Source: Cenarchaeum sp.
Lineage (GTDB): Archaea > Thermoproteota > Nitrososphaeria > Nitrososphaerales > Nitrosopumilaceae
Length of the DNA stretch: 64,000 nucleotides
Reading direction: 5' to 3'
NCBI GenBank assembly: GCA_963693095.2
Contig: OY843768.1
Coordinates: 32,001 to 96,000, forward strand
Shown here: one piece after another, positions 68-39,400 of the stretch
Numbering within the stretch: the stretch's first letter is position 1
Layout: each line of letters starts with the position of its first letter
The notes under the pieces: generated by a model
Told to the model about the DNA's origin: nothing
The model's database searches: none
The model's input: the letters and a program-made list of their open reading frames with translations, nothing else
Position numbers and translations under genes: made by a program

Positions 68-568
68 GTGAACGAACTACCCACAAGCTCAATGCTCACC
101 GACAATGCCAAGACGGTGGCCTATCTAATGAAAATAGCCGGCGAGAACAGGGAGCAGGTCGCCGAGGTCGAGGAGTGGGGCAAGAGGCGCCAGGGGCGCA
201 TCGAAACGCTGCGCCGCTTTGTGAGCCTACTCGAAAAGAATAGTGTCTTTGAGCGGCCTGACGGTAGGCTGAACAGGGTCATGGAGGACTTTGCCATAAC
301 GCAGTGCTTTGCGATAGCCACAAAGCATGGCCTCGATGACATGGAGTACGAGTTTTCTGACACCCAGTCCGGCCCGCTCTGCGCCGACCTGGACCTTGAC
401 CTCAGGGCCGTTGAGGCGGCCCCCACAGAGCCCCACGCGGGCCTCTTTGAGAGTGCCGAGGGCGAGGCAAAATTCCTAGAGACGATCAGGGGCAAGGACA
501 TCTATGAGCTCGGCAAAATGGCCAGGCTGCTCGTCATCCATGAAGAGTATCGCATGATACCACTGTGA
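68..568 (+). CDS. YwgA/Panacea(SocA)-like putative antitoxin, paralog 1 (divergent)
   Basis: 166-aa ORF with GTG start and an AT-rich TATA-like box at ~30-41. The motif AIATKHGLDDMEYEFSDTQSGPLCADL resembles the YwgA (COG3465) 'G.DLGY.F....GPYS.DL' pattern. Paralog of 649-1146, 11953-12450 and 12790-13287. Confidence 0.55.
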   Translation: MNELPTSSMLTDNAKTVAYLMKIAGENREQVAEVEEWGKRRQGRIETLRRFVSLLEKNSVFERPDGRLNRVMEDFAITQCFAIATKHGLDDMEYEFSDTQSGPLCADLDLDLRAVEAAPTEPHAGLFESAEGEAKFLETIRGKDIYELGKMARLLVIHEEYRMIPL

Positions 569-648
569 TGCGGGGCAGGGGACGGCGACAGTGGGCCGCA
601 GGTGTGCGCGCCAAGCTATATAGCGCAATGCGCAAAACCGCGTGCGCG

Positions 649-1146
649 TTGGCGAGGGTCACATATCCGGACAGGACACTTGCGGACAATGATGCCACAA
701 TGGAGCTCCTCAGGAAGCACTCTGGGGGCACCGTCGACGAGCTGGAGGAGATTGCCCTGTGGGGCGCAGCACGCAAGGCGAGGATCGACACACTGTGCCG
801 CCTTGCCGGCCTCGTCGACGGCGTGGGCGTCTTTGGGCGCGGCGAGGGGAGGATGAGCAGGATCGCGATGACCTTTACAATCCACCCCTGTGTCGCAATA
901 GCTAGCAAGCACGGCCTTGACATGGGATACACGTTCAACGACAACGAGTACGGCCCGTTCTCACCAGACCTCAGCGTCGACCTTCACGCCGTAGAGCCCG
1001 TGCGCGTGGACACTCCCACTGGCATATTTCCTAGCGACGGGGCAGAGTCGGCGTTTCTTGAGGACATTGGGGAAAAGAGTGCCAAGGAGCTCGGCGAGTT
1101 TGCGCGCTTGCTCGTTATAGACGAGCGGCATCGCATATTGTTATAG
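649..1146 (+). CDS. YwgA/Panacea-like putative antitoxin, paralog 2
   Basis: TTG at 649 aligns with the paralog starts (LARVTYPDRTL vs MSKITYPDKTL), with CTATATA at ~616-622. Contains KHGLDMGYTFNDNEYGPFSPDL. Confidence 0.6.
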   Translation: MARVTYPDRTLADNDATMELLRKHSGGTVDELEEIALWGAARKARIDTLCRLAGLVDGVGVFGRGEGRMSRIAMTFTIHPCVAIASKHGLDMGYTFNDNEYGPFSPDLSVDLHAVEPVRVDTPTGIFPSDGAESAFLEDIGEKSAKELGEFARLLVIDERHRILL

Positions 1147-1289: not shown

Positions 1290-1660
1290 TTGTACAGGGT
1301 AGCTCCTACTACCCACACGCTCGTTTCTCCACACACTGTTTTTCCTGTCCACCCATGTGCTTCTTGAAAGCCAGCAAAGGCATCTCCCGGCAGTCCGTGT
1401 CCAGCAAGAAATGGAGCCATCTCTCGTAGTGCCTGACGAACTTGTTGGCCACGCCAAAGTGTTTAATTTTACGCTCGGACGTCTGGAACACCTCAATCTC
1501 ACCACACGTCTGATGGATGACACGCGACATGGCGTACGATATCTCGCACCTGAGCTCTCGCCCAAGAGGGGCTACAGAGTTTAGCTCTTGCGGCAGATAC
1601 CGCGTTTATCTCGCTTGAACTGTGTCCGGTGATCAGAGAGTATGTACCCCACACAAGACA
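1290..1660 (-). pseudogene. Decayed IS481-family transposase fragment
   Basis: Minus-strand translations ILSDHRTQF and RVIHQTCGEIEVFQTSERKIKHFG...WLHFLLDTDCREMPLLAF match VLSDHGTQF and RVRHPQTNGKVERFFQTLEAEIGHFG...LHFALDIKGGETPLLAF of the intact transposase at 4478-5416. Stops and frameshifts are present. Confidence 0.8.
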
Positions 1661-1710
1661 CACTCCCGCTTGCTATTCATTCAACAAAACAACCGCCAAT
1701 TCGAATAACG

Positions 1711-1718
1711 TATTTAAG
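1711..1718 (+). promoter_or_regulatory. Putative TATA box for the methyltransferase/R-M unit
   Basis: TATTTAAG lies about 24 nt before ATG 1742, the same spacing as other leaderless genes in the window. Confidence 0.4.
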
Positions 1719-1741
1719 AGGATGTACTGCGTAGCCTTCTG

Positions 1742-2976
1742 ATGGCCGTGGAATGGTACGTTAAGCGTGCCTGCGTGCGCAGTTCGCACACATGCATTGG
1801 CAAAGATAAAATATCTATGACAACTAGGGGCGTCTCGGCGTCTCGGCGTCTCGGCGTCTCGGCGTCTCGGCGTCTCGGCGTCTCGGCGTCTCGGCGTCTC
1901 GGCGTCTCGGCGTCTCGGCGTCTCGGCGTCATACTAGAGTAAAATCACGTCAATCATGCACGCTAAGGTCACATTATTCAAAAACAGATCATACCAAAAA
2001 TTTAAATAAACGTAAAGCACGTAGCACCTCAAACGAGAAATCTCGTTCTCCTAAAAAAGCTGCTAGGTTTAAGTTCGTTGATCTGTTTTGTGGAATTGGC
2101 GGATTTCATATTGCAGCAAAAGAATTTGGAGGTGAATGTGTTATGGCTTGTGACATAGATGAAAAAGTTAGAATGGCGTATGAGGCAAATTATGGAATAA
2201 TGCCGCTGGGTGATATATCTCATATTAAAAATTCAGATGTGCCAAATCATGATTTTTTGTTTGCTGGTTTTCCTTGTCAGCCATTTAGTATACTTGGTAT
2301 GCAAAAAGGATTTAAAGATGAACGTGGTATATTATTTTTTGAGATTCTTAAATTTTTAAAGACACAAAAACCACGATTTGCTCTTTTAGAAAATGTCAAA
2401 CAACTGGCTACTCATAATGACGGAAAAACAATAAAAGAAATAACATCTGCGTTGGAAAAAATAGGATACATTCCTATTGTGGCTATTCTTAATGCTCTTG
2501 ATTACGGACTTCCACAAAAAAGAGAACGAACATTAATTGCATGTTTTAAAAATAAACGAGATGCGCAAAAAGCACAATTTCCCCCACACCCATCAACTCG
2601 TAAATATTCATTAAATAATATACTTGAAACTAAAGTGGATTCAAAACACTATGCTAGTGATTATATTGTCAAAAAAAGAAAATCTACTCATCAATCAAAA
2701 TATTATCCAAGTATTTGGCACGAAAACAAAGGTGGCAACATCGGAAGCCATCCTTACGCTTGTGCTCTTAGAGCTGGCGCATCTTACAATTATTTACTGG
2801 TAAATGGTGAACGGAGACTCACACCACGTGAAATGCTGCGATTACAGGGATATCCTGATAGTTTCAAAATCGTGTGTAACGATTCAGCGACACGACGGCA
2901 AGCTGGGAATTCTGTGCCTGTTCCGATGATTGAGGCTGCGATTGGAGGTATGTTAAATGAAGAAACCACGCCTTAG
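1742..2976 (+). CDS. C5-cytosine DNA methyltransferase, 5' end out of frame across the SSR (putatively phase-variable)
   Basis: Frame 1 is open from 1828 to 2976. It carries motif I (FVDLFCGIGG, ~2074-2103, upstream of the ATG at 2143), motif IV GFPCQPFS, ENV, QKRER and motif X GNSV. There is no in-frame ATG/GTG/TTG between 1828 and 2143; ATGs 1742 and 1817 are in frame 2. Confidence 0.85.
1829..1930 (+). repeat. Octanucleotide simple sequence repeat (GGCGTCTC)x12 plus 6 nt
   Basis: Counted directly: 12 perfect 8-bp units (1829-1924) followed by GGCGTC. Confidence 0.98.
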
Positions 2977-3763
2977 GAACAGTTCAAAAAAATTTCATGA
3001 TCCTGATTTGCTCCACGATACGCGAGGAGAAATAATGCGACCTCCACGATTAAAAAGTAAACCGGACGCTGATCACACATGGCCATATGATTGTGATGAC
3101 ATTCCTGATGAATTAATTTATGAGTTTTCAGAAAAACTTCTTCATATGTATTATATTGGAAAAAATGATATTACAGGCTCTGAATGGGACACAATATTTG
3201 CCAAATCTATTGGTGGCAAACAAATGAAAAGTCCAGTGGGTCATGCAGATGTAATTAAAGATAATTGCGCATGGTCAGTAAAAACAGTGAAATGTCTTAA
3301 ACCACATACTGCAGATAGTATTCGAATTATTTCGGGAAGGAATTCGCCTCAATTTTCATATGGTAATATCGATTCCACAGATAATCAGGCTATGGGCAAC
3401 ATGGTTCTTGGAATATGGAATGCACGTGTCAAAGAAGCAAAACAAAAATACCCAAATGGGTTACATACATCAATTATGGTTCGTAATATGGACAAAATGC
3501 AATTTACATATTTTGAGCTTGAATCATTAGAATATCTGTCACATAAATATATCTGGAAACAAAACAACCGTAACAATTTAGAAGGATATGACCAGGATGG
3601 CAATCATATATTTACATGGCAGCCACATGGCGGTCAATTTACTATTATCTATAAAATTCCAAAATCCGCTAAAAAATTTTCTATGAAAAAAATTAAACAG
3701 ATTAGACTTGAGGATTTAATTAAAGACAAGATTGAATTATCTTGGATCAAAATGGAAAAATAG
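2957..3763 (+). CDS. Putative type II restriction endonuclease
   Basis: Overlaps the MTase stop by 20 nt and shares its AT-rich composition. Has a PD-(D/E)xK-like 'ADVIKDNCAWSVKT' segment. Specificity is not determinable here. Confidence 0.7.
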   Translation: MKKPRLRNSSKKFHDPDLLHDTRGEIMRPPRLKSKPDADHTWPYDCDDIPDELIYEFSEKLLHMYYIGKNDITGSEWDTIFAKSIGGKQMKSPVGHADVIKDNCAWSVKTVKCLKPHTADSIRIISGRNSPQFSYGNIDSTDNQAMGNMVLGIWNARVKEAKQKYPNGLHTSIMVRNMDKMQFTYFELESLEYLSHKYIWKQNNRNNLEGYDQDGNHIFTWQPHGGQFTIIYKIPKSAKKFSMKKIKQIRLEDLIKDKIELSWIKMEK

Positions 3764-3995
3764 ATCATATTGCATTTTTACTATTGATAACATAAATAAT
3801 GAATCACTATTTTAGAAACCAATCTAAATTGGTTATTTTATTCTAAAACACAGGGCATATTATAAACGATTAATTTGATCTTTAGATAATGTATCCTAGA
3901 AATGCCGTATGTGATAAATCGTTTGATGCTTTAGAAATGCTCCTTGTCCATTCTCCTTATTTACTTTATATTATACATACATACGGTGCGTCTCT

Positions 3996-4406
3996 GTGAG
4001 CAAACCTGCCTCGAGATCACACATGTGTCCCCACGGCTCGCTCGCTGCCACATGGGCTGCACGCGTTGATGACTGGATTGATGACGGCTCGAGGATAGTC
4101 AGGCTCTCAATGAAGCATCGGCGCAACTATAGGGCGACTGTCTGCACAAGGTGCCCACACGAGCAGCAGGTTCGGCGCAAGTGCTCGGCCCTGACGCCCG
4201 GATGCGACAAGAAATCGTGCGCGCACATGGATCGCGCATTCTATTCAAAGCACCGTAACCTCATCATGGCGCACATTGACTCACATCCGCTCTCGCAGCG
4301 CCTCCGCATGAACGCCGCGCTTGATGACAGTCCTGTTGATGCCACACACAACTCGCCGCAGGCAGCCCCTGGTAAGTCAGAGGGCGCAGAGTCTGCCTCC
4401 CACTGA
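3996..4406 (+). CDS. Cys-rich hypothetical protein (CxxC...C...C...C), copy A
   Basis: 136-aa ORF, highly similar to 16560-16958 (VDDWIDDG...TVCTRC...GCDKKSCAHMDRAFYSK). TATA-like TTTATATTATA lies upstream. Confidence 0.65.
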   Translation: MSKPASRSHMCPHGSLAATWAARVDDWIDDGSRIVRLSMKHRRNYRATVCTRCPHEQQVRRKCSALTPGCDKKSCAHMDRAFYSKHRNLIMAHIDSHPLSQRLRMNAALDDSPVDATHNSPQAAPGKSEGAESASH

Positions 4407-4453
4407 TGGGAGGGCGAGGGGTCTGGCCCTGTGCAAGTAAACTATCATTTGGC

Positions 4454-5545
4454 TGTTTTATACGAAAAGTAGTGGAGTCAATCATTCGAGTCCACCTCCA
4501 TCCACCTCGGGTTCTCCGCCCTGACCCTCCCGTCGGCCCTGCGCCTCCTGAAGGCCAGCAGGGGCGTCTCGCCACCCTTGATGTCCAGGGCGAAGTGGAG
4601 GCGCCTCTCGTTGTAGTATGCGATGAACTCGGGGACCCCGCCAAAGTGGCCGATTTCGGCCTCGAGCGTCTGGAAGAACCTCTCGACCTTGCCGTTGGTC
4701 TGGGGGTGGCGGACGCGCGCCATGAGGTGCGCCATGTCGCGGTCCAGCAGCTCCTGCTCGAAGAGCGTCGGCGTCCAGCTGCGGCTCGGCGTGCCGCGCC
4801 TGGTCGCCGTGAACTGCGTGCCGTGATCCGAGAGCACCTGCGCCGGCGCGCCAAATGTCTTGATTGCCTTTCGCAGCACCATCACCGTGTTGGCCGACGT
4901 GGCCGCGGCGAACACGCCAAAGCCCGTGACGCACCGCGACGCGTCGTCGAGGAACACGACGAGGTGCGCGCCCCTCAGCGGCCCGTATTTCATTATGTGC
5001 CAGTCCACGTGCCACATCGCGTTGGAGTGCGCGCGCTCGAACCGCACCCACTTGCGCCTGCGGGACTTTGCCCGCGACCTCGTTACGAGCCCCTCCGCCA
5101 GCATGATGCGGTACACCGACCAGTACGTTATTTTTGAGTTGTTGCCGCGCAGCCCCTCGGCCACGCGCACGACGCCGGCCGGCCGGTCGGAGTGCTCGGC
5201 GAGAACCTCGGCCACCTCGCCGTCGGTGACGTCCCTGCGCGGCCTCCCCATCGGCCGCGGCTCCGGCGGCGCGCCGGTCCGCCGGCAGTGCGCGCGCAGC
5301 TCGTATGCCCATGATTGGGAAATCCCGAGATCCCCGGCAACCTCCCTGGCGCTCCGGGTCTCCAGCGTCCTGGCCACGTACCGGAGAGCCCGGCCGTCCA
5401 GCCTCCTGACCGGCATGGCGCGCCGGCGGCGGAGTCCCTCAAACGTGTGTTTCGGCAGCCTGCCGGACCCGGCGGCCCTCCGTGGGCTCCCGGATCTGCG
5501 CCAGGCAGGCATTCCTGCCCACTCCACTACTTTTCGTACAAGGCA
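4454..5545 (-). mobile_element. IS481-family insertion sequence with 15-bp target duplication
   Basis: 25-bp imperfect TIRs TGTTTTATACGAAAAGTAGTGGAGT (4454-4478) and ACTCCACTACTTTTCGTACAAGGCA (5521-5545). Direct repeat AAACTATCATTTGGC at 4439-4453 and 5546-5560. Confidence 0.92.
4478..5416 (-). CDS. IS481-family DDE transposase (rve core)
   Basis: N-terminal HTH plus WHVD, DDASR, SDHGTQF, HPQTNGKVER and YYNERRLH motifs. Likely start is ATG 5416. Confidence 0.92.
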   Translation of the reverse strand: MPVRRLDGRALRYVARTLETRSAREVAGDLGISQSWAYELRAHCRRTGAPPEPRPMGRPRRDVTDGEVAEVLAEHSDRPAGVVRVAEGLRGNNSKITYWSVYRIMLAEGLVTRSRAKSRRRKWVRFERAHSNAMWHVDWHIMKYGPLRGAHLVVFLDDASRCVTGFGVFAAATSANTVMVLRKAIKTFGAPAQVLSDHGTQFTATRRGTPSRSWTPTLFEQELLDRDMAHLMARVRHPQTNGKVERFFQTLEAEIGHFGGVPEFIAYYNERRLHFALDIKGGETPLLAFRRRRADGRVRAENPRWMEVDSND

Positions 5546-5659
5546 AAACTATCATTTGGCAAATATGCATAAATACGATGGGCGTATTGTGATGATTATT
5601 CACCATTTCGCTATCATATGATAACAAACCTAATATTTACTATCATTAAATGAGCCCCC

Positions 5660-6880
5660 ATGCCTCGTGAGGACGACGGAGCAGGGCGCCCTGTCGGCGG
5701 CGTATATGAGAGGATTGAGGGCGGACATACGTTCGTCCCCGATCCAATGCCGCCCAGGCTTGTGCATACCGGCGATATAGATGACGAGACGATCAACGAC
5801 AAGATTCAGCTGGCCATGATGGAGATCGGCCGACTCGACATGGCCGGCAGTCTCATCGGCGGCGCATTTGTGCGCACCGTGCCGTACCTGGCCCGCGAGG
5901 CCGTGGCGAGCTCGATGATCGAGGGCACAAGCACGACGATCAACGACCTGTTTAGGCACAGGGTTCTCAAGGACATCAGCGACGAGGAGGCCAAGCGAAT
6001 AAAGCTAAAGGAGGTTGACAATAACGCGCGTGCACTAGTGGAAACCCTTGGCGCAGTGGGCAAGACAGAGCCAATAAGCCTAGACCTCATCAAACGCGCG
6101 CATAGGATGCTCTTTGATGGAGTGGAGACATACCCTGACAAGTTTATGCCTGGCGAGTTTAGGACAGTCCAAAACCACATAGGCGGCAAGAGTGTGACTG
6201 ATGCGACATATGTGCCGCCCCCACCTGACATGGTGGAACCACTTATGCAAAACCTTGTTGCATATATCGAGAGTGCCAAGGGACCTGCATCATCACTAGT
6301 ACGCTGCGCAGTCGCACATTATCAGTTCGAGGCCATACACCCGTTTCCCGATGGCAATGGAAGGGTCGGACGACTCCTTATTCTTCTGATGATGCGCAGG
6401 TATGGGCTGCTCAACACGCCGGTCTTGAACATAAGCAGATACCTGCTTCGAAAACGCTCAACATACTATGCCATGCTACGAGCGCCACGTGAACATGGTG
6501 GATGGGCACAATGGATTGCATTCTTTGTTGATGCGTGCAAGGAACAGGCTCAAACAGGGCTGTCTGGAATGCGACAACTAGACGATCTGTATCATGAATA
6601 TCGTGAACGCCTAGATCGTATAACTAGAAGCTCCAATGCAGTGGCAGTCGTTGACACCCTTGTCGAAAACCCGTATGTCACCATACCCGTTATACAACGC
6701 ATTACCAAACTCACACATGCCGGTGCGGCCGACCTGGTTCGTAGGCTAGTAAAGGCCAACATACTCACAAGCGTGTCGACCCACTCTAGGATTCGCCTAT
6801 ATGCCGCCTTTGAGATCCTTGACATCCTCAAATCCAGAGATGCTGAGGATGAGCCTGATGCCACACGGCCTGCGGCATAG
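5660..6880 (+). CDS. Fic family protein (AMPylase) with C-terminal wHTH
   Basis: Canonical HPFPDGNGRVGR motif and an inhibitory-type SSMIEGT motif. Confidence 0.92.
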   Translation: MPREDDGAGRPVGGVYERIEGGHTFVPDPMPPRLVHTGDIDDETINDKIQLAMMEIGRLDMAGSLIGGAFVRTVPYLAREAVASSMIEGTSTTINDLFRHRVLKDISDEEAKRIKLKEVDNNARALVETLGAVGKTEPISLDLIKRAHRMLFDGVETYPDKFMPGEFRTVQNHIGGKSVTDATYVPPPPDMVEPLMQNLVAYIESAKGPASSLVRCAVAHYQFEAIHPFPDGNGRVGRLLILLMMRRYGLLNTPVLNISRYLLRKRSTYYAMLRAPREHGGWAQWIAFFVDACKEQAQTGLSGMRQLDDLYHEYRERLDRITRSSNAVAVVDTLVENPYVTIPVIQRITKLTHAGAADLVRRLVKANILTSVSTHSRIRLYAAFEILDILKSRDAEDEPDATRPAA

Positions 6881-7071
6881 CGCGCCGGCTCCCCACACAC
6901 GCCTAATCGTAGGCACATTGTACAGGACCTGCCCTGACGCGCAGGGTCGGCAACTGCCCTGCTGTCTCGCATTGACGGCGCAGGACACGTGCCGGCCGAC
7001 TAGCGCCGCATTATGCGCCCTCGGCTGCGATCACGCATGTCAAGATTAAAGATCAACATTGTTGGAAAACT

Positions 7072-7791
7072 TTGCGGGATCATGACAAAAGCAAGTGCGG
7101 CCCCTGCAAAGGCGTGAAGAGATGCGCAACTGCGATCATGATCGCAGCGACAAGATCGCAAACGGGTGCCACGACTGAGACGCCTGTCACACGGGATGCG
7201 GATCCGTGGGATCAGCTGGCCGGCACGCACCACCACCACAAGTCCCCCCGCACGTCTGCTGGCACTGATTTGGAGCGCGACATGCCGGTGAGCGCCACTG
7301 GTGATGGCACGCCGCGCAATGCTGACTCGCCGCACTCCGCAGATGCGAGATGCCATGTGTTCGGTGCGATTATCGGAATCATATTTGGTTACAGCAAAAT
7401 TGACCATTGTGTAGATATTTGTCTCTTGTCTGCTAATCCGACCGCTTATACGATAAAGACCAAAAATGATCGTGATGCATATTTGAGAAGCATGGGAGGA
7501 TTTGAGAAAAAGCATCGTACTGTCAAAAGACATGTTGGTTCCGTTTATACTGTTAAACTTCATAAACGCATCTGTAAGATCAGAGAAATCAGAAACGACC
7601 TTGCCCATTCTACGAGTGGTGTTGACGAAACCAAAACGATCGCTCACTCTACAAAACATAAGACTTATGGTGTCACGTGCCTAGAGTGTGTGCGTGACGA
7701 GACAGAACTCTGCGCAATAGAGTTTGAAAGCGCCGTGAAGCGCTATCTGAACTATGGCGGCGTTTATGGCAGTGGGGTGAGGGGGATCTAG
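7072..7791 (+). CDS. Putative HEPN-domain protein (start uncertain)
   Basis: The helical C-terminal half contains IREIRNDLAH, an R-X4-H HEPN RNase motif. Its stop overlaps the start of the next ORF. Confidence 0.5.
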   Translation: MRDHDKSKCGPCKGVKRCATAIMIAATRSQTGATTETPVTRDADPWDQLAGTHHHHKSPRTSAGTDLERDMPVSATGDGTPRNADSPHSADARCHVFGAIIGIIFGYSKIDHCVDICLLSANPTAYTIKTKNDRDAYLRSMGGFEKKHRTVKRHVGSVYTVKLHKRICKIREIRNDLAHSTSGVDETKTIAHSTKHKTYGVTCLECVRDETELCAIEFESAVKRYLNYGGVYGSGVRGI

Positions 7792-9788
7792 TGGCCATGT
7801 CTGACGCCCGAACCATGGGCAACTGCCCTGATCAGGTTAATATCAGGCGTCAACTGCTGGCGTGCGGTGACATGGCGGCACTAGAGAGCCCAGAGGGAGT
7901 GCCCAGGGTTGACGCCTGGGTCAAGGAGCTCGAGTGGTGCAGGAGGGGGCACTTTGATGATTTTGAGGATTCTGACCGGGACAGGATTGTGGGTGATCTG
8001 GAGCATATTGCGCGTGTCACACACAGGGGATCACCTGACAGTCTTGGAGATGCCAGCATCGCACTTGGTGGCATGCTTGGACACTTTGAGAGTGACATGG
8101 CGTGTGCGGACATTTTGGATCGTGCGCTAGACAGGATATACGTCACTCCCGATCACCATGGCGCGCTCGAAAAGCTCTTTGCGGGAATGGATATCGAGGG
8201 CAAAAAGAGCGACGAGCCCGCATACATTGCGCTTGACATGGTTCGCGTGACTCTGCGGTACCTGCGCCTGCGCGAAGGCACGCTGCGCCACGCGTGGACT
8301 GCGATACTTGGGGTGTGCTATGACGTGCTTGTTCGTGTGGCGCGTCGTAACGGGCTCGACAGACTGGCCGGGATGATGGACGATACGGTGTCGCGAGAGG
8401 CGTTCTGTGGGAAACAGGCAACTATCGCCGACATGGCAAGGCTGCGAATCGCAGTGTATGACAGGCGCAACATTCCGACAGACGGCGAGATGCGTGGGGT
8501 TCTCGCACGATATCCCAAACTCAAGGGCTTTCTTGGAAAAGACGCCGTGGTGCGCCCAAAGGGGGCAATCACGCAACTCATCCTTCACCTGTCACTGGAG
8601 CACCTTTTATATACAGAGGACTATGAGTCAATCTATACCGTGGTGTATGAGAGCAACATCCGCCTGTCCCACTGGATTGACAGGATTTACCGCCAGCATG
8701 GCCTGATTTATGAGGGTCTATCACTTGGGACTCCGGCAGGCTCTGCTCTGCAAAAGCGATCCCTTGAATGGCTGCACCTGCAGGTCTCGGTGCGCTATCT
8801 CGTCCTGGAGCTCTGGAACTTTGCGACGCTCTACGAAAGAGTGAGCCGTGTTACACGGGGTCTTGATCTGGACGACCCTGACAAGCTCTGGCAGATACTC
8901 GACTCGCCAAAGGGTCTAGGGCCCGTGATCAGGACCATGCACAAGCGTTTTGGCGCGTATCCTGACTGGACATTTAGCGAGGCTGCCGACAGGATCAACT
9001 ATATCGGCCTAGACAGTCTTGTGTACTGTGCGCGGGCCACACTGATGTTCCAGGATGCAATATTTAGGATGATCCCGCCCAGATACCACAAGGTTGGATC
9101 ACTGAGGCACAACCCCGTTCCAGCATCTCTTGAGCTGGGGACATCTGCAGACAGCGAGGCGCTGCAAAAACAGTATGGTGATGCAAGCCTGTCAGTTGAC
9201 ACGGGAAAAAACCTGAAAAACTATGACGTCCTCTATGCGTCATACTCATCCCTGTTGCTGCTGTACGCAAATTTTGCCGAGCTTGCCAGCAGGGATGATC
9301 ATGGCGATCTTGGCGCATACCTGCGGTTCACCAAGGAGGTCTATGGAATAAAGTACATGATCCTCGAGATATGCAACTTTATCTGCACGTTCAGGAAAAT
9401 GGGGATTGACCTGCCGTTCACGCCAGGATTTCTTGCGCACGAAAAGCAGTACCTCCACATCAGAAACAACTATTCGGCGCACACGCGAACCGACAAGATA
9501 GGGGATCTGGGCCAACTCCTCGAAGACAATCGTGACCTCTTGTCCAACATGGCCCATGACATTCAAGAGATCGACGCCCTGGCAGGGCGCCTGGAGCGAG
9601 AATTTCCGGACCCAAAGATCAGGGAGATCAGGCCGATGAACAATGCAGAGATGGACCATCTTGAGCGAGACCTCGAATCGCTGCGCAGTGAGTCGCATGC
9701 GTCTTGCGGCAACATATTTGCCAACATGGCAAGTGTGGGAGAAGAGCGCGAGGCGCGCGCAAGGTCGCGGAGGGCTCTGAGGCCGTGA
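7791..9788 (+). CDS. Hypothetical 665-aa protein with tandem HEPN-like domains
   Basis: C-terminal IRNNYSAH (R-X5-H). Internal similarity between SVRYLVLELWNF and GIKYMILEICNF. Confidence 0.55.
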   Translation: MAMSDARTMGNCPDQVNIRRQLLACGDMAALESPEGVPRVDAWVKELEWCRRGHFDDFEDSDRDRIVGDLEHIARVTHRGSPDSLGDASIALGGMLGHFESDMACADILDRALDRIYVTPDHHGALEKLFAGMDIEGKKSDEPAYIALDMVRVTLRYLRLREGTLRHAWTAILGVCYDVLVRVARRNGLDRLAGMMDDTVSREAFCGKQATIADMARLRIAVYDRRNIPTDGEMRGVLARYPKLKGFLGKDAVVRPKGAITQLILHLSLEHLLYTEDYESIYTVVYESNIRLSHWIDRIYRQHGLIYEGLSLGTPAGSALQKRSLEWLHLQVSVRYLVLELWNFATLYERVSRVTRGLDLDDPDKLWQILDSPKGLGPVIRTMHKRFGAYPDWTFSEAADRINYIGLDSLVYCARATLMFQDAIFRMIPPRYHKVGSLRHNPVPASLELGTSADSEALQKQYGDASLSVDTGKNLKNYDVLYASYSSLLLLYANFAELASRDDHGDLGAYLRFTKEVYGIKYMILEICNFICTFRKMGIDLPFTPGFLAHEKQYLHIRNNYSAHTRTDKIGDLGQLLEDNRDLLSNMAHDIQEIDALAGRLEREFPDPKIREIRPMNNAEMDHLERDLESLRSESHASCGNIFANMASVGEEREARARSRRALRP

Positions 9789-9834
9789 TGGCGCCGACTG
9801 TTGCGAGCCCGGAAATGTCGGGGGTCTTGCACGC

Positions 9835-10497
9835 ATGAGAAATGACGGCTCGGGCATAGTTGGCGGGGGTCCTGACTATTTCCGCCTCGCCGAGGATGCG
9901 ATAACGGAGATAGGCATGTCCCTGTGCCCGCAGTCATGGAAGGACGGCCTCCTCAATGGCAACTATGGCGACACGCTCTCTAAAATGCGCCTCTATGCAA
10001 AGTTTCTCAGTGTTGGCAAGACACTCTTGCCGCTGCAGTGTTCAAAGAGCCCTGGGGTCACCGCCTTTGACTTTCGGGCAGAGGCCAAAGGCAATGGGTG
10101 CTGGGTTGCCGTCTGCATGCTAGAGAACGAGATGCGCCTCCTCATGGACAATGAGCGCAGCATGATGCGCCACGATCCGGGCGACTATGGCCAACGGTCC
10201 GCCAAGATTACGTCTGAAAGGATAGTCGAGATGGCCCGTGCGCGCCTGGCCTCAGTCACGGTGCGAGACGAGCAGGCCATTCTGGCCATCACCGACCCCC
10301 TGGCCATGGTCGGCGACTATGGCGGGCTGGATGATGCGATGGAGGCGATCGCAGACGAGATTGGCTGGCTGTCTGCCGTCGTTCTCGTCCATGCCGACTC
10401 GTGTGACATACGTGACGTGCGGGGCACGGCAAACCCGCTGTCGGCGATAATCCGCGAGAGGATCATGGATGCCTGCGAGGCGCCTGCAGGGCGCTGA
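9835..10497 (+). CDS. Hypothetical protein
   Basis: 220-aa ORF co-oriented 46 nt after the previous gene. No confident family. Confidence 0.55.
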   Translation: MRNDGSGIVGGGPDYFRLAEDAITEIGMSLCPQSWKDGLLNGNYGDTLSKMRLYAKFLSVGKTLLPLQCSKSPGVTAFDFRAEAKGNGCWVAVCMLENEMRLLMDNERSMMRHDPGDYGQRSAKITSERIVEMARARLASVTVRDEQAILAITDPLAMVGDYGGLDDAMEAIADEIGWLSAVVLVHADSCDIRDVRGTANPLSAIIRERIMDACEAPAGR

Positions 10498-10620
10498 TGG
10501 CGTGATGTATATGCGACTTGGGCATATCGCGCTCTTGCCTTTGCCACTCGCCGTTCTGGCTAGAGTGAGAGGCTGTTCAAAACTTCGACCCTGAAACAGT
10601 CCGCGCCGACTTGGTCGCCC

Positions 10621-11403
10621 TCACGCAACAGCCCTTGCTGACACGCGCCGTCCTGACCTGGGGGCCGCGGCAATGCGCATCTTTGGATACTCGCTATACG
10701 TTCTGTCTCCCACCTTTCGCCCGCCGGCCTTTGGATAGCGGCCGCCCCATTGCTTAAAGAACACCTTTACGCCCTGGCTCTTGCACTGCCTTATGAGGCC
10801 AACGACCCACTCCTTTTCAACCATTCTGTAATTGTGCCCGCTCTCGCCGCCAATTATTGCCCAGTCTATGCCCTCTAGGTTCACCCCGTCTATTGGGCTG
10901 AGGAGCGGCTCAAAGCTGACAAACTTTATCTCGCACTTTACCTCCCTGAGCCTGTCTATGCGGTTCGTCGTCGAGGCGTTCTCCACACTAGTCCCCATCC
11001 AGATGTGCTGCGGTATGTCACGTCTGTGGCGCCTTGCAAACTCGCCAGAGAACGCCCTCATCCGCGTCGGCCGCTTTGTGAGAACCTGATAGATGTGCCA
11101 GTCGGCCACTACCATCACGTCAAAGCACCTGCTGATAAACTCGCGCGTAGAGTCCTCGTGGAACATGTCTGACATTGAGTTGACAAATATCTTTTTGGGC
11201 TTTTTCCACGACAGCGGAAGGTCGACCTCGCCGGCATGCTCGATGAACTCAAAGCCGTTCTGGTACTTTGCGACTCCCATGGCCTTTAGGCGCGCCGAGA
11301 GTTTCTCGGCATAGCAGTTCTTGCACCCCGAGGAGACCTTGCTGCACCCTGTCGACGGGTTCCACGTCGCCTCGGTCCACTCTATGGCAGAGTTTGTGGC
11401 CAT
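10621..11403 (-). CDS. DUF5131 (phage Gp37/Gp68) family protein
   Basis: SAIEWTEATWNPSTGCSKVSSGCKNCYA, IFVNSMSDMFH, LTKRP, SFEPLL, IIGGESG and FFKQWGG signatures. Confidence 0.93.
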   Translation of the reverse strand: MATNSAIEWTEATWNPSTGCSKVSSGCKNCYAEKLSARLKAMGVAKYQNGFEFIEHAGEVDLPLSWKKPKKIFVNSMSDMFHEDSTREFISRCFDVMVVADWHIYQVLTKRPTRMRAFSGEFARRHRRDIPQHIWMGTSVENASTTNRIDRLREVKCEIKFVSFEPLLSPIDGVNLEGIDWAIIGGESGHNYRMVEKEWVVGLIRQCKSQGVKVFFKQWGGRYPKAGGRKVGDRTYSEYPKMRIAAAPRSGRRVSARAVA

Positions 11404-11952
11404 GTGATGGCGTTTTTGCAGGCGAATGTATAAACATTATCGTGACATGGCTCTGTTTCATAACCAGATTCTAGGCGTGCCGTCTCTGGGCGCCTCCCCG
11501 CGGATCGCCACGCGTCCGAGCACAGCTACCTCAAATCATTAAACAGTGTATGTTCAATTGTCTAGTTCGTCAATTTGTTAGTATAGATCCATTGCAAACA
11601 GACAAGTTCGTACGTGCTGATTTGAAATATGGGGTGCGATTTTCATCCGAACAAGGTTCAGTCCAAACCCGCCTTTCTTGATCGGTGACGCCATATTGTT
11701 CCCCATGCCGTTCCTCGCAATTTTTGCCCTCTAATGTGGGATTGGTACCTGCAGACTTGTGCATTGCCTCGCTAGGCATGTGTGGAGCCATCACCCACGT
11801 CGCACGCACGGACTCCACGTTATTCCCAGTGGATCTCCATGTCGGGAAGGTGGACGTGTACACCGACCCCCATGATCCCGGCCGGCTTTTCGCAGTGCGC
11901 ACGCCTAGATGCCACGATAAAGTATATACGCCAACCTCGAAAAGGGCTCGCG

Positions 11953-13804: not shown

Positions 13805-15320
13805 GTATGAGGTCAGCACCTAGACCGCACGCATGACCTCCTCGACCACGCTCTTCCCCATGGCCCTCCACGTCAGGAAGCACGTCAGGAGGATAGACAT
13901 GCGCCTGGCAGCCGGCGCGCCCCCCTTGAGCTGGCCGCTCACCTTGCGGCGCACGACCACGTCGCGCAGCTCCCTCTCGGCGGCGTTGTTCGTGGGCGCG
14001 ACGCCGGCGTGCTCGCAGAACGCGAACATCTGCGGCGCGGCGCGGCGGAGCCTGGCCACGGCGCGCGCCAGCTCCCAGCCCCCGCCGTCGTCGTGCCGGT
14101 CCAGCAGCGACGCCAGGGCGTCCTCCATCGCGCGCCGCAGCTCCGCGCACGGCGCGACGGCGGTGTCCCTGGCGGCGCGGTACAGCGAGAGGAGGTCGGC
14201 GTGCAGCCCGGGCAGCGCCCCGCCGTGCATCCTGGCGGCGTGCTCCACGGCGCGCAGCTCGTGCGCCCAGCACCGCTGGTGCATCCCGCCGGCGTCGAAC
14301 CTGTTGTACGCCGGGTGCCCGTCGGTTATCACCACGCCTTCGTACCCTGGGAGTATCACGTCGAGCACCTGCGCGCCCCTGCTCTTGCTGAACTCCAACC
14401 CGACACGGTTCCCGCCCGTCGCCAGCCACATCCAGTGGCCCTCGCCGGAGCTTGGGAACCCCGTCTCGTCCACGTGCACGTGCGACGCCCTCCTGATCTC
14501 CGCCCATATGCGCTCGGCCTCCGGCTCCAGCGCGTCGGCCACGTTGTCCCTTATGCGCAGCACGGTCGCCTTTGACATGGAGACCCCGTGCACTTCCAGC
14601 ATCTCGGCGGCGATCCGCTCGACGGGCGTCCGAGTGCGCACGGACGACGCCACGGTGCCGACGAGCCTCCTGCCGTAGGACCCGCGGGCCGGCAGGCCGG
14701 AGTCCGCCCGCCGCGTCGCGCCGCAGTCCGCGCACGTGGCCGACTCGACATAGTGCCGCGTCTCGACCGGCCGCGGGGGCGGGATCTCGATGATGTCGCG
14801 CACCGCCGTCGTGACCTCCATGCGGCCGCCGCACTCGCACGGCCCGCGGTCGACGCGGTGCCGCTCCGTCCCCGTCGGCGCGTGCCGGCGCGACGTGCCG
14901 CGGTGGCCGGGCCTGCCGCCGGGCGTCCCGTGCGGCGGGAGCTCGCCGCGCTCCCTCGCCCGCCGCAGCTCGCGCTTCCTCCTCTTGTGCTCCAGCGACG
15001 CCGACGACGGCGGCGTGTTGGCGTTCTGGTAGTACGACAGCGTGCGCCTCATCGCCTCTACCTCCGCCTCCAGCTCGGCGATCCTCTCGTCCCTCGACCT
15101 GACGGTGTCCTCCAGCCCGTGGACCTCCCCCTGCAGCTCCTTGACCTGCAGGCCCAGCGCCCTGGAGATCCCCTCGACGGCCCTGAGCCTGCCATTGAGC
15201 TGTGCCAGCGTGCTGTCCTGCTTCCCGCGACCCCTCACGCCCCGGCGCGCGCCCCAGCGGTAAATGGATCGGTAGGATCGCGCCTATTTGACCAAATGGG
15301 CAGGGGTGCTGACCTCATAC
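13805..15320 (-). mobile_element. IS66-family (single-ORF, ISBst12-like) element, copy 1
   Basis: 16-bp perfect TIR GTATGAGGTCAGCACC. 8-bp TSD CAGCCTTG at 13797-13804 and 15321-15328. Length 1516 bp. Confidence 0.95.
13820..15238 (-). CDS. IS66-family transposase
   Basis: Coiled coil, Zn-finger CECGG/CADCG, and HVDETG, TDGH..Y, QRCWAH, TNNAAERELR motifs. Confidence 0.93.
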   Translation of the reverse strand: MRGRGKQDSTLAQLNGRLRAVEGISRALGLQVKELQGEVHGLEDTVRSRDERIAELEAEVEAMRRTLSYYQNANTPPSSASLEHKRRKRELRRARERGELPPHGTPGGRPGHRGTSRRHAPTGTERHRVDRGPCECGGRMEVTTAVRDIIEIPPPRPVETRHYVESATCADCGATRRADSGLPARGSYGRRLVGTVASSVRTRTPVERIAAEMLEVHGVSMSKATVLRIRDNVADALEPEAERIWAEIRRASHVHVDETGFPSSGEGHWMWLATGGNRVGLEFSKSRGAQVLDVILPGYEGVVITDGHPAYNRFDAGGMHQRCWAHELRAVEHAARMHGGALPGLHADLLSLYRAARDTAVAPCAELRRAMEDALASLLDRHDDGGGWELARAVARLRRAAPQMFAFCEHAGVAPTNNAAERELRDVVVRRKVSGQLKGGAPAARRMSILLTCFLTWRAMGKSVVEEVMRAV

Positions 15321-36400: not shown

Positions 36401-39400
36401 GACGCAAAGGCCGGCGCGACGCTTGTCATCGTGCTAGAGGCTGATGAGCCCATATCCGTGGTCAGCGCATCGCTCCTTGGCGACGCGGCCCTCCCGCCCA
36501 CGTCGATCGTGGGCGAGGGCACGTCGTGGCAGATACGCCGGACGATAGCAGACGGTGACGCCGAGGGTCCAGTCGAGTTTGCGATCACGGTTCGTGACAC
36601 GGCCCTCGTGCCAAACGAGACGATGCTGACGCACGAGGACATTGCCGACGGCGAGCATCATGTCGAGATCGACACGACGCCCCTGACGTTTACGGCAGTC
36701 ACAAGGCCCGGACCATGGCCAATTCCGGCATCTAGGACAGCAGCCAGTGTTCCGCCTGATGCAACGAGAACCATAGTGACGATCAGCGAGGCACTCCAGC
36801 CCTCTGTCGACGTGGGAATGTCAATCGACACGAACAAGTGGATTCTCCTTGACAATCCTTTCTCCTTTCAATCGCCGACGGCAACCTCGACTAGACTGCC
36901 AACCGTTGGCGGAACCCTCCTCGTTTCAAGTGCGACGGTTCTCACGCTGGGTGACTCGCCGACAATAGAGCTGATTCACCCCCCATCTTTTGGAACGCAT
37001 CAACCCATTGTGACCTATCATCCAGAGGCCGGCGACGCGCCGCCTCTTTTGCTCGACACCGCACTTAACGGCCCGTCCCTCCGTGATTTGATGGGCAGCG
37101 GCCTTGTTCATTTTGAGGACGTGGCCTGGACTGTCTCTGCTGATGAGGTTCCGCCATACCTTTATGCCTTTATCCGAGATGACAACACAATACTGTGGCT
37201 TGCGACCGAGTATATAGAACGGCCACCCCCTCAATCCATCTGCGACACACCCCGCACGACATGCACCAATCCTGCCTTGCTTGCCTATGAGGACTGGACA
37301 ATCGAGCTCGTCGATCACCACTCCCACGACACGCCGGCGCGCCACGTGGCTCACTTTCACCCTGACAGGAGCGCCTCCTTTAGTGGTATAGGTTTGGATC
37401 AAGGCATCCCCAACACAGGGTCAAGTTCCTTCAGTTATGTATACCCGGAGGGCGCTATGAGGTCGCAGGACTTTGTCTACTTTACATACTCGCCCCCGGA
37501 GCAAGGTGCTTTTGAGCACCCTTCGTCGTGGTGGGATCGTTCAGGCAACTACATGGAGGCACAGACATGGCTAGTTGGCCGTAACGTGGCTCCCGGCGCA
37601 GCCGAACTTGGGCTCACCGTCCTGCGTGATGACACTGATGACGGCATGGAGAACTATGTCGCTCGCACGGGGCCGTTTGCGTCGTATGCGCGAGCCGGCG
37701 ACAGGATTGCCATAGATCTCGTGCTGGATGGGTCGCCTAGCCGACAAGTCCGGCCAACGATGTCGTTCTTTGGCGGCGTGACGTGGTCTGCTGCGCCACT
37801 AGAGACCCGAAATGACCAAGGGCAAATCAGCGCGGAAACCAACCCATTCCCCTTGTGGTCCGGACCTGAGCCGGGACTCAGAGTCGACAACAGGATTCCG
37901 ATGGTGGCCTTGCTGGAGCTCAGGGAGTGGTCTGGCACGCTCAACGTCTCGGACGGGCGGCCAAGCACGGAGGGCCGCGTGCCCTTTGCGATAGGCGTCA
38001 CAGGCATCGGGGGCGCGAGTCGCACGATTGCCAACGACGCCATCACTGATGACTCGTTCGCCGAGATCGACCTTACGCCGCCATCGAGGCCGATCGCGGC
38101 GTTTGGGGCCGGCGGGAGGACCATAGTGCTCTCCTTTGATGAGCCCCTGGACTTTTCGCGCGCGGCCTCGGCGTTTGGCGTGGCAGTCGAGGATACGCCA
38201 GTGGCCCTTGATGCTGATACGCCGCCGGCATATGACGCCGTGACGCAGAGCGTGACGATATCCCTCGAGGAGGCAGCCAGCGACGGGATTTACACCGTGA
38301 GCATATCAAGGGACCTGACTGACAGGGCGACGAACGCGTACGTCGACGGCGACGTTATGCTCAGCATTGACACGAACGCGCCGACTGCGTCAAACGCGAG
38401 GTTCTCTGATGCGGCAACGATCCTGTTTGACGTGAGCGAGCCGCTTGATGACTCGACGCTCAACAATGGCAACGTTTCTGTCGTGACCGTCTCGGATCTC
38501 AATGCGCTCTCCTCCGGGAGAGCCGGCCTTGTCGTGTCAGTTGCCACGGAGTTCAGGGCAACAGAGGGCCAGACCGTCACAGTCGGCATACCGGCTGCGG
38601 TGACGGACTCTTCAGGGCGCGCCTTTGTGCCAACAGAGCTCGAGGCAACATACGGGGGCGATCCGCCCGAGCTGATTCGTGCCGCGTACGTTTCTGACAC
38701 GTCGGTTCGCCTGACGTTCAACGAGGATCTCCTTGCGACATCAGTCACGCCGACTGCGTTTAGCGCAATGGGTCCGGCAAGGGACTCCGAAGCGCTCCGA
38801 GTCGTTGGCGCAACACCTGTCGCCGGCTCTCCGGCCTCCACGATGGTCATGCTAGAGTCACCGGGCATGGATTCTGACGGGACGTACACGTTCACTGCGA
38901 TCGCCGCCATGGACGAGACGGCCGTCGGGGTTCGTGATGCCATCCGCCTGCCACTTGCGGTGGCAGCCACTGCTGACGTTATGCGCAATCCTCTCTCGCC
39001 TTCGATCGAGTCGGCCGCATATGTCAGCAACACGGGGATCACAGTCACGATCACCGAGGACGTCAGTGCTGCCACAGTCAGGCCTGCAGCCTTTACGCTC
39101 ACAGGCCCAAAACCGTCAACAGAGGCACGCGACATAATGACTGCGACGCTCAATTCGGAGGCTGCCGAAGGGGAGCGAAGGGTCATAACGCTTGGTCTAG
39201 TGTCACCAGGCATGATATTTGACGGCATATACGAGCTCACCGCACTCGAGGCCGCCGCCGACGGTGATGCCGGACTGCGTGACCTAGTAGACACGCCAGT
39301 ATCGCCTCCAGACAAGGTTGACATCACCCGCTCGGAGGACGACCTGACGCTCGTCTCGGCGGCGCGCGTCGACGACACCACGATCGACGTCACGTTCAGC

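Follow-up and report, generated by a model that had tools for sequence, protein, structure and literature searches.

A perfect 8-nucleotide repeat as a putative on/off switch ahead of a Type II restriction-modification operon in an ammonia-oxidising archaeon

Phase variation driven by simple repeats is a hallmark of host-adapted bacteria. The Type III mod genes (phasevarions) of Haemophilus, Neisseria and Helicobacter are phase-variable, hpyAVIBM of Helicobacter pylori is a phase-variable C5 methyltransferase with AG repeats, and Campylobacter jejuni has poly-G contingency loci, among them the Type IIG enzyme Cj0031. Here we describe an archaeal locus of related design, at positions 1742-3763 of a 64,000-nucleotide (nt) stretch of Cenarchaeum sp. 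DNA (contig OY843768.1, positions 32,001 to 96,000), which is called the window below and to which coordinates refer unless a contig or locus is named. A perfect repeat with an 8-nt unit lies between upstream ATG codons and the body of a C5 cytosine DNA methyltransferase gene, which is followed by a gene for a candidate restriction endonuclease. We propose, with a probability of about 0.6, that the repeat is a slipped-strand contingency element that toggles a leaderless ATG in and out of the methyltransferase frame, that it probably governs the endonuclease as well, and that the assembled state is OFF.

The locus resembles the Type III mod phasevarions in that the 5' part of the methyltransferase contains a perfect repeat whose unit length is indivisible by 3, so placed that unit changes shift the frame of the catalytic body, and in that the alternative frames terminate quickly. 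It differs from them in having a Type II C5 methyltransferase and a separate endonuclease instead of Mod and Res, in the length of its unit and in its archaeal host; switching and any regulon are putative here. With hpyAVIBM it shares a C5 cytosine methyltransferase open reading frame (ORF) interrupted by a simple repeat, but hpyAVIBM has a dinucleotide repeat and belongs to a bacterial pathogen, whereas here the repeat precedes motif I and the gene heads a methyltransferase-endonuclease operon. The likeness to C. jejuni concerns the whole genome, which is small, in which mismatch repair was not found, and where G/C tracts abound at the 5' ends of restriction-modification (R-M) and putative surface-protein genes; the difference is that homopolymers occur here together with units of 4, 7 and 8 nt, in the genome of an ammonia-oxidising archaeon.

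Poly-G phase variation in Campylobacter is a subject of PMC8355987. In the literature searched, supplements aside, we found no report of repeat-driven phase variation of R-M genes in archaea or in sponge symbionts, in agreement with a preliminary description of this DNA, to whose author no earlier report of such a switch in a thaumarchaeon was known. The available text of a 2025 review of phase variation leaves archaeal distributions to future work (PMC11868660). In the portions available of two reviews of archaeal R-M systems (PMC10609329, PMC11033074), phase-variable systems are mentioned for bacteria only; the first cites bacterial surveys, and its table gives few 5-methylcytosine (m5C) methyltransferases per genome in 14 Nitrosopumilales (rows as parsed). 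No archaeal phase-variable system appears in the accessible sections of PMC13076061, and archaeal repeats are handled solely statistically in those of PMC3315296. The mechanism class is well known from bacteria, whose kind of random on/off switch has hardly any record in archaea; what is new here is the archaeal host, an 8-nt unit on a Type II methyltransferase-endonuclease operon, and the genome-wide repertoire of repeats.

The repeat and the reading frames that surround it are arranged as follows.

1711-1717, plus strand: TATA-like box TATTTAA, at -31 to -25 relative to ATG 1742, with 24 nt between the end of the box and the ATG
1742-1942, plus strand: OFF-phase ORF of 66 codons, from ATG 1742 through a second in-frame ATG (1817) and the repeat to TAA 1940-1942
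1825-1827, plus strand: TAG in the methyltransferase frame, 1 nt 5' of the repeat
1829-1930, plus strand: perfect simple repeat (GGCGTCTC)x12.75, found with Tandem Repeats Finder (TRF), 75% GC, with no stop codon in any frame of either strand
1935-1942, plus strand: stops in both non-methyltransferase frames, TAG 1935-1937 (frame 3) and TAA 1940-1942 (frame 2)
1956-2009, plus strand: frame-3 mini-ORF of 17 amino acids (aa), from ATG 1956 to TAA 2007-2009, a rival start if the A5 run at 1996-2000 lost one A

TRF reported a single array at 1829-1930, with a period of 8, 12.8 copies, 100% matches, no indels and a score of 204. A perfect array of 102 nt is far from chance expectation, and a 24-nt (three-unit) probe taken from the tract had ten overlapping matches in the 2.0 Mb searched, all of them inside this array. 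A unit that is indivisible by 3, repeated with 100% matches, is what a phase-variable methyltransferase calls for. After the TAG at 1825-1827, frame 1 is uninterrupted from 1828 to 2976 (382 codons), via the repeat into motif I, and its earliest ATG, GTG or TTG is ATG 2143, which lies 3' of motif I (ORF table and direct reading). The locus has the order start, repeat, catalytic domain, with ATG 1742 and ATG 1817 as presumed starts in frame 2 and the body in frame 1, and frame arithmetic shows that a loss of 8 nt or a gain of 16 nt joins either ATG to the methyltransferase frame. The geometry supports a switch because a stop is placed 1 nt before the tract, the other frames are stopped at most 12 nt after it, and there is no start before motif I. 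The 66-codon ORF itself has no Pfam match. The preliminary description had reported the perfect repeat between the two ATG codons and the methyltransferase body, the TATA-like box about 24 nt before ATG 1742, the frame open from 1828 with its first start at 2143, the end of frame 2 at 1940-1942 with 12 units, and the fusion of the ATG to the methyltransferase by loss of one unit or gain of two; on all these points the sequence was found to be as it stated.

At 702 crudely called ORF starts of this genome, A+T was maximal at -30 to -26 before the ATG, as archaeal promoter geometry leads one to expect of TATA boxes ahead of leaderless mRNAs; because of this peak, the box of ATG 1742 can be said to stand at the genome's usual promoter position for leaderless or near-leaderless mRNAs, and TATTTAA 1711-1717 probably has promoter function. 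Nothing like it was seen by direct reading at the corresponding distance upstream of ATG 1817 or of ATG 1956.

In the mechanism that we infer, the slipped-strand contingency repeat would sit 5' of a horizontally acquired Type II R-M operon (C5 methyltransferase, then endonuclease). Transcription would probably begin about 25 nt past the TATA-like box, so that ATG 1742 would serve as the start codon of a leaderless mRNA. Ribosomes that start there would cross the repeat and, at 12.75 units, terminate at TAA 1940, which is the OFF state. If one unit were lost or two were gained, this ATG would instead give a (GVSASRRL)n-type peptide, a basic linker and the complete methyltransferase, which is the ON state. 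The endonuclease would probably be translated mainly when ribosomes reach the end of the methyltransferase, so that both activities would switch together. Use of this start, slippage at the locus and coupling of the two genes are presumed, as is any biological effect. The ON/OFF proposal of the preliminary description stands in its anatomy and frame logic, and for switching itself the evidence is indirect.

The two genes of the putative operon have these features.

1828-2976, plus strand: C5 cytosine DNA methyltransferase frame of 382 codons, PF00145 (E 2.2e-80) over residues 81-372
2074-2103, 2272-2280, 2389-2397, 2515-2529 and 2905-2913, plus strand: methyltransferase motifs FVDLFCGIGG, PCQ, ENV, QKRER and GNS, respectively, by direct reading
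2944-2949, plus strand: Shine-Dalgarno-like GGAGGT, 7 nt 5' of ATG 2957, by direct reading
2957-3763, plus strand: candidate restriction endonuclease of 268 aa, with a 20-nt overlap with the 3' end of the methyltransferase (stop 2974-2976)

Motifs I, IV (PCQ), VI (ENV), VIII (QxRxR) and X (GN) of C5 methyltransferases are all present in the frame, and all invariant columns of an alignment of the query with 16 homologues are retained, these motifs included. The closest solved structure is M.HhaI (E 2.5e-62), with which the variable target-recognition region aligns poorly.

The endonuclease has neither a Pfam domain nor a PADLOC model, and by sequence it matched nothing among solved structures beyond a chance match (E 0.021). 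Its 1162 homologues, of about 243 aa, are likewise all without a Pfam domain, and it retains 38 of the 38 invariant columns of the family alignment. An AlphaFold model (predicted local distance difference test, pLDDT, 87.5) gave no match at E <= 0.001 with Foldseek. When the model was aligned structurally with representatives, the top nine rows were all Type II restriction endonucleases, the best being 3ndh_B (Z 8.6; root-mean-square deviation 4.9 over 170 aligned residues), which we take to be ThaI; HinP1I scored Z 6.8 and the HhaI endonuclease Z 4.4. In the 80 best endonuclease loci from species-representative genomes (the related loci below), an HhaI-like methyltransferase lies directly upstream on the same strand in 77, and the other three are cut by the end of the contig or locus. 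A restriction-fold protein is thus adjacent to the methyltransferase and linked to it across genomes, as in Type II R-M systems, and the pair is read as a Type IIP system with predicted endonuclease activity.

The endonuclease start overlaps the methyltransferase end in 50 of the 58 related loci with a callable ATG (median 47 nt) and follows it after a gap of 1-11 nt in eight; 19 further loci gave no callable ATG. Since overlap is the norm, ATG 2957 fits the family and the alternative ATG 3035 (58-nt gap) does not; the 20-nt overlap is also the one given in the preliminary description, whose suggestion that it could couple translation of the endonuclease agrees with this norm. The GGAGGT at 2944-2949 could permit independent initiation of the endonuclease. 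At the N-terminus (window 2957-3100), the family start motif seemingly occurs twice, as MKKPRLRN at residue 1 and MRPPRLKS at residue 27, as if, compared with the homologues, a stretch of about 25 residues had been duplicated internally.

Long repeats also adjoin other methyltransferase genes of this genome, which has 2,003,945 bases in two contigs (C1 and C2), a GC content of 60.4% and a completeness of 99.55%. A census of perfect homopolymers of at least 10 nt and of other units with at least 30 nt in total gave 24 long perfect repeats. There are 18 ORFs with a methyltransferase domain in the 2.0 Mb (8 PF00145, 5 PF01555 and 5 PF02384), and 7 of them, compared with an expectation of about 0.11, have a repeat at most 250 nt from the 5' end (Poisson 3e-11, or 1.4e-9 if every repeat sits at a 5' end among about 2000 genes, a gene number that was assumed); these P values are indicative only, because the thresholds were set after a first census had been seen. 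The repeats at defence genes and at other large ORFs are the following.

C1:1747265-1747403 (locus L027:2566-2704), minus strand: repeat of a second C5 methyltransferase (PF00145, E 6e-92), (TGCC)x34.75, which is (GGCA)x34.75 on the coding strand
C1:148289-148299, C1:285034-285044, C1:1812968-1812978 and C1:813399-813410: G/C tracts of 11-12 nt at four R-M-related loci
C2:6824-6885 and C1:712050-712112: coding-strand (GCTCCGA)x8.9 and (CGCTCTGG)x7.9 at two type IIG-like paralogues of 1556 and 1560 aa (PF02384)
C1:493170 (G21), 515985 (G14), 1324331 (C18), 337054 (G14) and 766200 (C16): long G/C tracts at or near 5' ends of large ORFs
C1:776010 (C18), 1959854 (G15), 16806 (G18), 780478 (G13) and 1328123 (C13): further long G/C tracts at or near 5' ends of large ORFs

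The second C5 methyltransferase is 38% identical to that of the locus described here, and its motif I (FIDLYAGIGG) comes directly after the (GGCA)x34.75 tract. An in-frame stop lies just upstream, a TTG placed 6 nt before the tract is in another frame, and loss of one unit or gain of two would fuse it to the methyltransferase. C11/G11 tracts break two N6/N4 methyltransferases: one tract is in the 5' coding part of a frame of 852 codons whose start is in another frame, and the other is just after the DPPY of a 524-aa enzyme, which is frameshifted there. At a GmrSD-type (GmrSD_N) restriction gene, a C11 tract separates the ATG from a TATA-like box, and a G12 tract lies 225 nt upstream of an operon for a C5 methyltransferase and a BpuJI-like (BpuJI_N) endonuclease. 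The repeats of the two type IIG-like paralogues occupy the same position in the leader: a TATA-like box precedes their beginning by about 25-35 nt, and the start codon follows their end by about 110 nt. The second C5 methyltransferase, the two N6/N4 methyltransferases, the operon with the G12 tract and the two paralogues are among the seven methyltransferase genes counted above.

Large ORFs, most of them of 800-1000+ aa, have the long G/C tracts at their 5' ends or 55-66 nt upstream; they show no Pfam domain, or only weak matches to immunoglobulin-like (Ig-like; Big_5) or CopC domains. Of four open frames of 426 to 829+ codons with a tract 55-66 nt from the 5' end, three gave weak Ig-like or CopC matches, all below the cut-off, and the large ORFs may encode surface proteins. 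G/C tracts of at least 14 nt number 8, compared with about 0.13 by a simple base-composition estimate.

The same gene pair carries a repeat in an unrelated host. A canonical methyltransferase start was found at or before motif I in 74 of the 75 related loci in which the 5' end is visible. The sole exception is locus L070, from a metagenome-assembled genome of Alphaproteobacteria (record OZ251461.1).

L070:1383-1593: perfect (GCCAGCCC)x26.4, which ends 12 nt before the codon aligned with the first residue of the query

The L070 methyltransferase has no in-frame start; an ATG lies in another frame, and one unit less or two more would fuse it. L070 resembles the archaeal locus in its methyltransferase family (52% identity), in its endonuclease family, in having a perfect 8-nt repeat just before motif I, and in its intact endonuclease, whose start overlaps the methyltransferase end by 32 nt. 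It differs in its repeat unit, its bacterial host and its GC-rich cassette, and in an IS1595-like transposase just upstream of the repeat. Such a repeat design at the same gene pair in unrelated hosts suggests convergent selection. The comparison with orthologues, which had been proposed as a check, gave both the normal arrangement of the family and a second locus with its own 8-nt repeat at the same spot.

Tract lengths were compared with those of a complete genome of the same genus (G004). Six G/C tracts could be matched to this genome by both flanks at one place (flanks 83-100% identical; loci L188-L193); five of them differ in length (17/21, 19/16, 19/18, 19/7 and 16/13) and one is equal (15/15). 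The remaining G004 tracts were left out: three were unmatched, one was matched by one flank only, one had its flanks at two distant places, and one had its left flank best matched at a paralogous locus. Because five of the six matched tracts differ, we consider that the tracts are unstable in this lineage. Tracts of at least 12 nt number 12 in G004 (up to 26 nt) and 3 in a genome of another genus of the family. MutS_V (PF00488) and NucS_C (PF01939) had no match in the 99.55%-complete genome.

In conclusion, a switch at the locus is favoured by the promoter geometry, by the repeats at methyltransferase 5' ends, by the L070 repeat and by the changes in tract length between sister species. A wider reading, which we hold tentatively and rate a little below an even chance, is that this archaeon, and probably its genus, has a multi-locus contingency system in which random switching would produce cell-line-specific restriction barriers and methylation patterns. 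The set would comprise G/C tracts and 4-, 7- and 8-nt repeats, at 7 of the 18 methyltransferases, at the GmrSD-type gene and at several putative surface proteins of 800+ aa, and would be an archaeal counterpart of phase-variable R-M systems and phasevarions. If this locus and its companions do switch, ammonia-oxidising archaea would turn defence and methylation on and off stochastically, with consequences for virus-host dynamics, for gene-flow barriers and for the heterogeneity of methylomes in uncultured archaeal populations. For annotation, 'truncated' methyltransferases beside perfect repeats in such genomes may be switched genes rather than pseudogenes.

The gene pair is of foreign origin. 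The host has a full-length archaeal small-subunit (SSU) rRNA (1457.6 bits) and an archaeal AmoA (E 3e-117) and is therefore an ammonia-oxidising archaeon, as expected from its earlier designation as a thaumarchaeon. The pair lies in an island of different composition.

1931-3960, no strand: low-GC island with the gene pair, 34% GC compared with 62% for the window; its first nucleotide directly follows the last one of the repeat

To the left and right of this place G004 is collinear, but it lacks the cassette; an unrelated low-GC insert of about 600 bp lies between the same flanks. In a DNA search of 40 relatives the gene pair was not found, the matches being the downstream flank and weak motif-level or short ones. 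Since G004 lacks the cassette and the relatives show only the downstream flank, the cassette is regarded as a recent acquisition in a hotspot. The repeat has 75% GC like the other long repeats of the genome, which suggests that it arose in the host and was not brought with the cassette. The flanks 1147-1828, 1931-2067 and 3764-4040 have no second copy in the genome except for one weak match of 149 nt, and the exact 34-nt pattern of the right junction had no match in metagenome contigs or in viral contigs. A (GGCGTCTC)x4 probe found 37 metagenome contigs with arrays of 3.5-11.25 units and 197 candidate ORFs; these arrays were dropped as copies of the locus, as none of the 37 contigs encodes a relative of the methyltransferase, of the endonuclease or of the second C5 methyltransferase.

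Four sequencing runs of one study (X1-X4), searched as Logan k-mer contigs and possibly the source of the assembly itself, contain the locus; no RNA run that contains it was found in the run search for the genome. Where they cover the locus, the contigs show no variants, joints or indels. The 38-nt unitig of the repeat is present in each run, and the flank contigs enter the tract by 6-30 nt, except that the upstream contig of X4 ends at 1746; contig cover is missing over 1931-1993 in X3 and over about 1747-1892 in X4. The ratio of repeat-unitig to flank-contig depth was 8.7-9.2 in X2, 8.3-8.9 in X4, 6.9-9.1 in X1 and 2.7-9.1 in X3, where 9.0 is expected at 12.75 units, 8.0 at 11.75 and 11.0 at 14.75 (with words of 31 letters assumed); this estimate is rough, and depth is not a copy number. 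In run X3, the upstream contig has a depth of 474 and the island contig a depth of 140, and the island contig starts at 1994 rather than 1901, which may reflect a strain mixture or a variant just before 1994 (window 1400-2036).

Several observations weigh against the proposed switch. First, no contig spans the tract in any of the four runs; contigs break at the repeat, so that length variation is not seen, and the depth ratios suggest that the majority allele is the assembled, out-of-frame one, with which minority alleles are compatible. Second, an in-frame allele of the methyltransferase is absent from the protein collection, where the best non-self match is 66% identical, and the consensus has all four repeat-interrupted methyltransferases of the genome out of frame, a state that decay would likewise produce. 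Third, none of the three C5 methyltransferases of G004 has an adjoining repeat, except that one of these loci has a 12-mer x5.2 at its edge. Fourth, at two type IIG-like genes the repeat is in the leader rather than in the ORF, so that frame switching is not the sole possible action of such repeats. Finally, as the endonuclease is intact and has a GGAGGT of its own, an OFF methyltransferase would endanger the cell if the two genes were not coupled.

The explanation that survives best after the proposed switch, although we consider it unlikely, is that the locus is a relic: the cassette would have lost its native 5' end at insertion, a neutral repeat born by slippage would have grown at the junction in a genome lacking mismatch repair, and the methyltransferase would be dead, with no switching. 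The out-of-frame consensus here and at the three other interrupted methyltransferases, and the missing in-frame allele, fit such a history, as do the failure to find MutS and NucS, the IS1595-like transposase next to the L070 repeat, and the position of the island in a hotspot, near an insertion sequence (IS) integrase (4478-5527) that is absent from G004. It would have to be reconciled, however, with 382 codons that have stayed open in DNA of 34% GC and with the retention of all invariant residues in both enzymes. Neutral repeats are not expected to cluster at the 5' ends of methyltransferases (7 of 24, with 0.11 expected), nor is a neutral repeat expected to recur at the same spot in an unrelated bacterium, and a live endonuclease without its methyltransferase should be counter-selected.

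Less probable still is that the true start is ATG 1956, with the frame broken by an extra A in the A5 run at 1996-2000 and the repeat acting at most as an upstream promoter or leader spacer. With one A less, the product would be about 340 aa long, which is in the family range of 300-350 aa, and would have a basic N-terminal tail as in some homologues; leader repeats do occur elsewhere in the genome. An indel in the A-run near 1980-2000, which the preliminary description had named as a finding that would count against a switch, was sought in the run contigs. None was found over 1994-4066 in the contigs of all four runs, and those of the three runs that cover 1901-4066 differ nowhere from the assembly, of which these contigs are perhaps not independent. 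For ATG 1956, moreover, the region -31 to -25 is GC-rich repeat, with no TATA-like box, and no GGAGG stands ahead of it; the analogous loci leave no room for a start before motif I, with 0 nt at the (GGCA)n gene and 12 nt in L070.

Gradual tuning of expression by the repeat (through transcript stability, promoter spacing or a roadblock), with the methyltransferase made from a non-canonical start or by reinitiation and no strict ON/OFF state, is the least probable explanation, as frame 1 shows, over 1828-2073, no near-cognate start that has a ribosome-binding site, and the stops placed around the tract suit frame control better, even though a second TATA-like string, ATAAAATAT at about 1805-1813, would put a transcription start site inside the repeat and the two type IIG-like paralogues have 7- and 8-nt leader repeats.

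Other features of the window were observed around the gene pair. The integrase at 4478-5527, on the minus strand, is of the rve family and is inserted relative to G004, where the counterparts of window 4034-4453 and 5546-11528 are contiguous; it is followed by a Fic/DOC protein (window 5660-6880). Upstream, paralogous genes of about 170-190 aa without a Pfam domain form an array (window 68-1146 and about 12 kb further upstream), at the edge of which the island lies, and the same array is also multi-copy in G004 (C1:17.8-25.4 kb of that genome). Farther downstream, 25.1 tandem copies of a 363-bp unit with 99% matches (window 39324-48436), probably a giant repetitive protein, are followed by 1.9 copies of a 378-bp unit (48800-49506). 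The TRF rows at 14032-14162 and 60566-60696, about 46.5 kb apart, are identical, which hints at a duplicated segment within the window.

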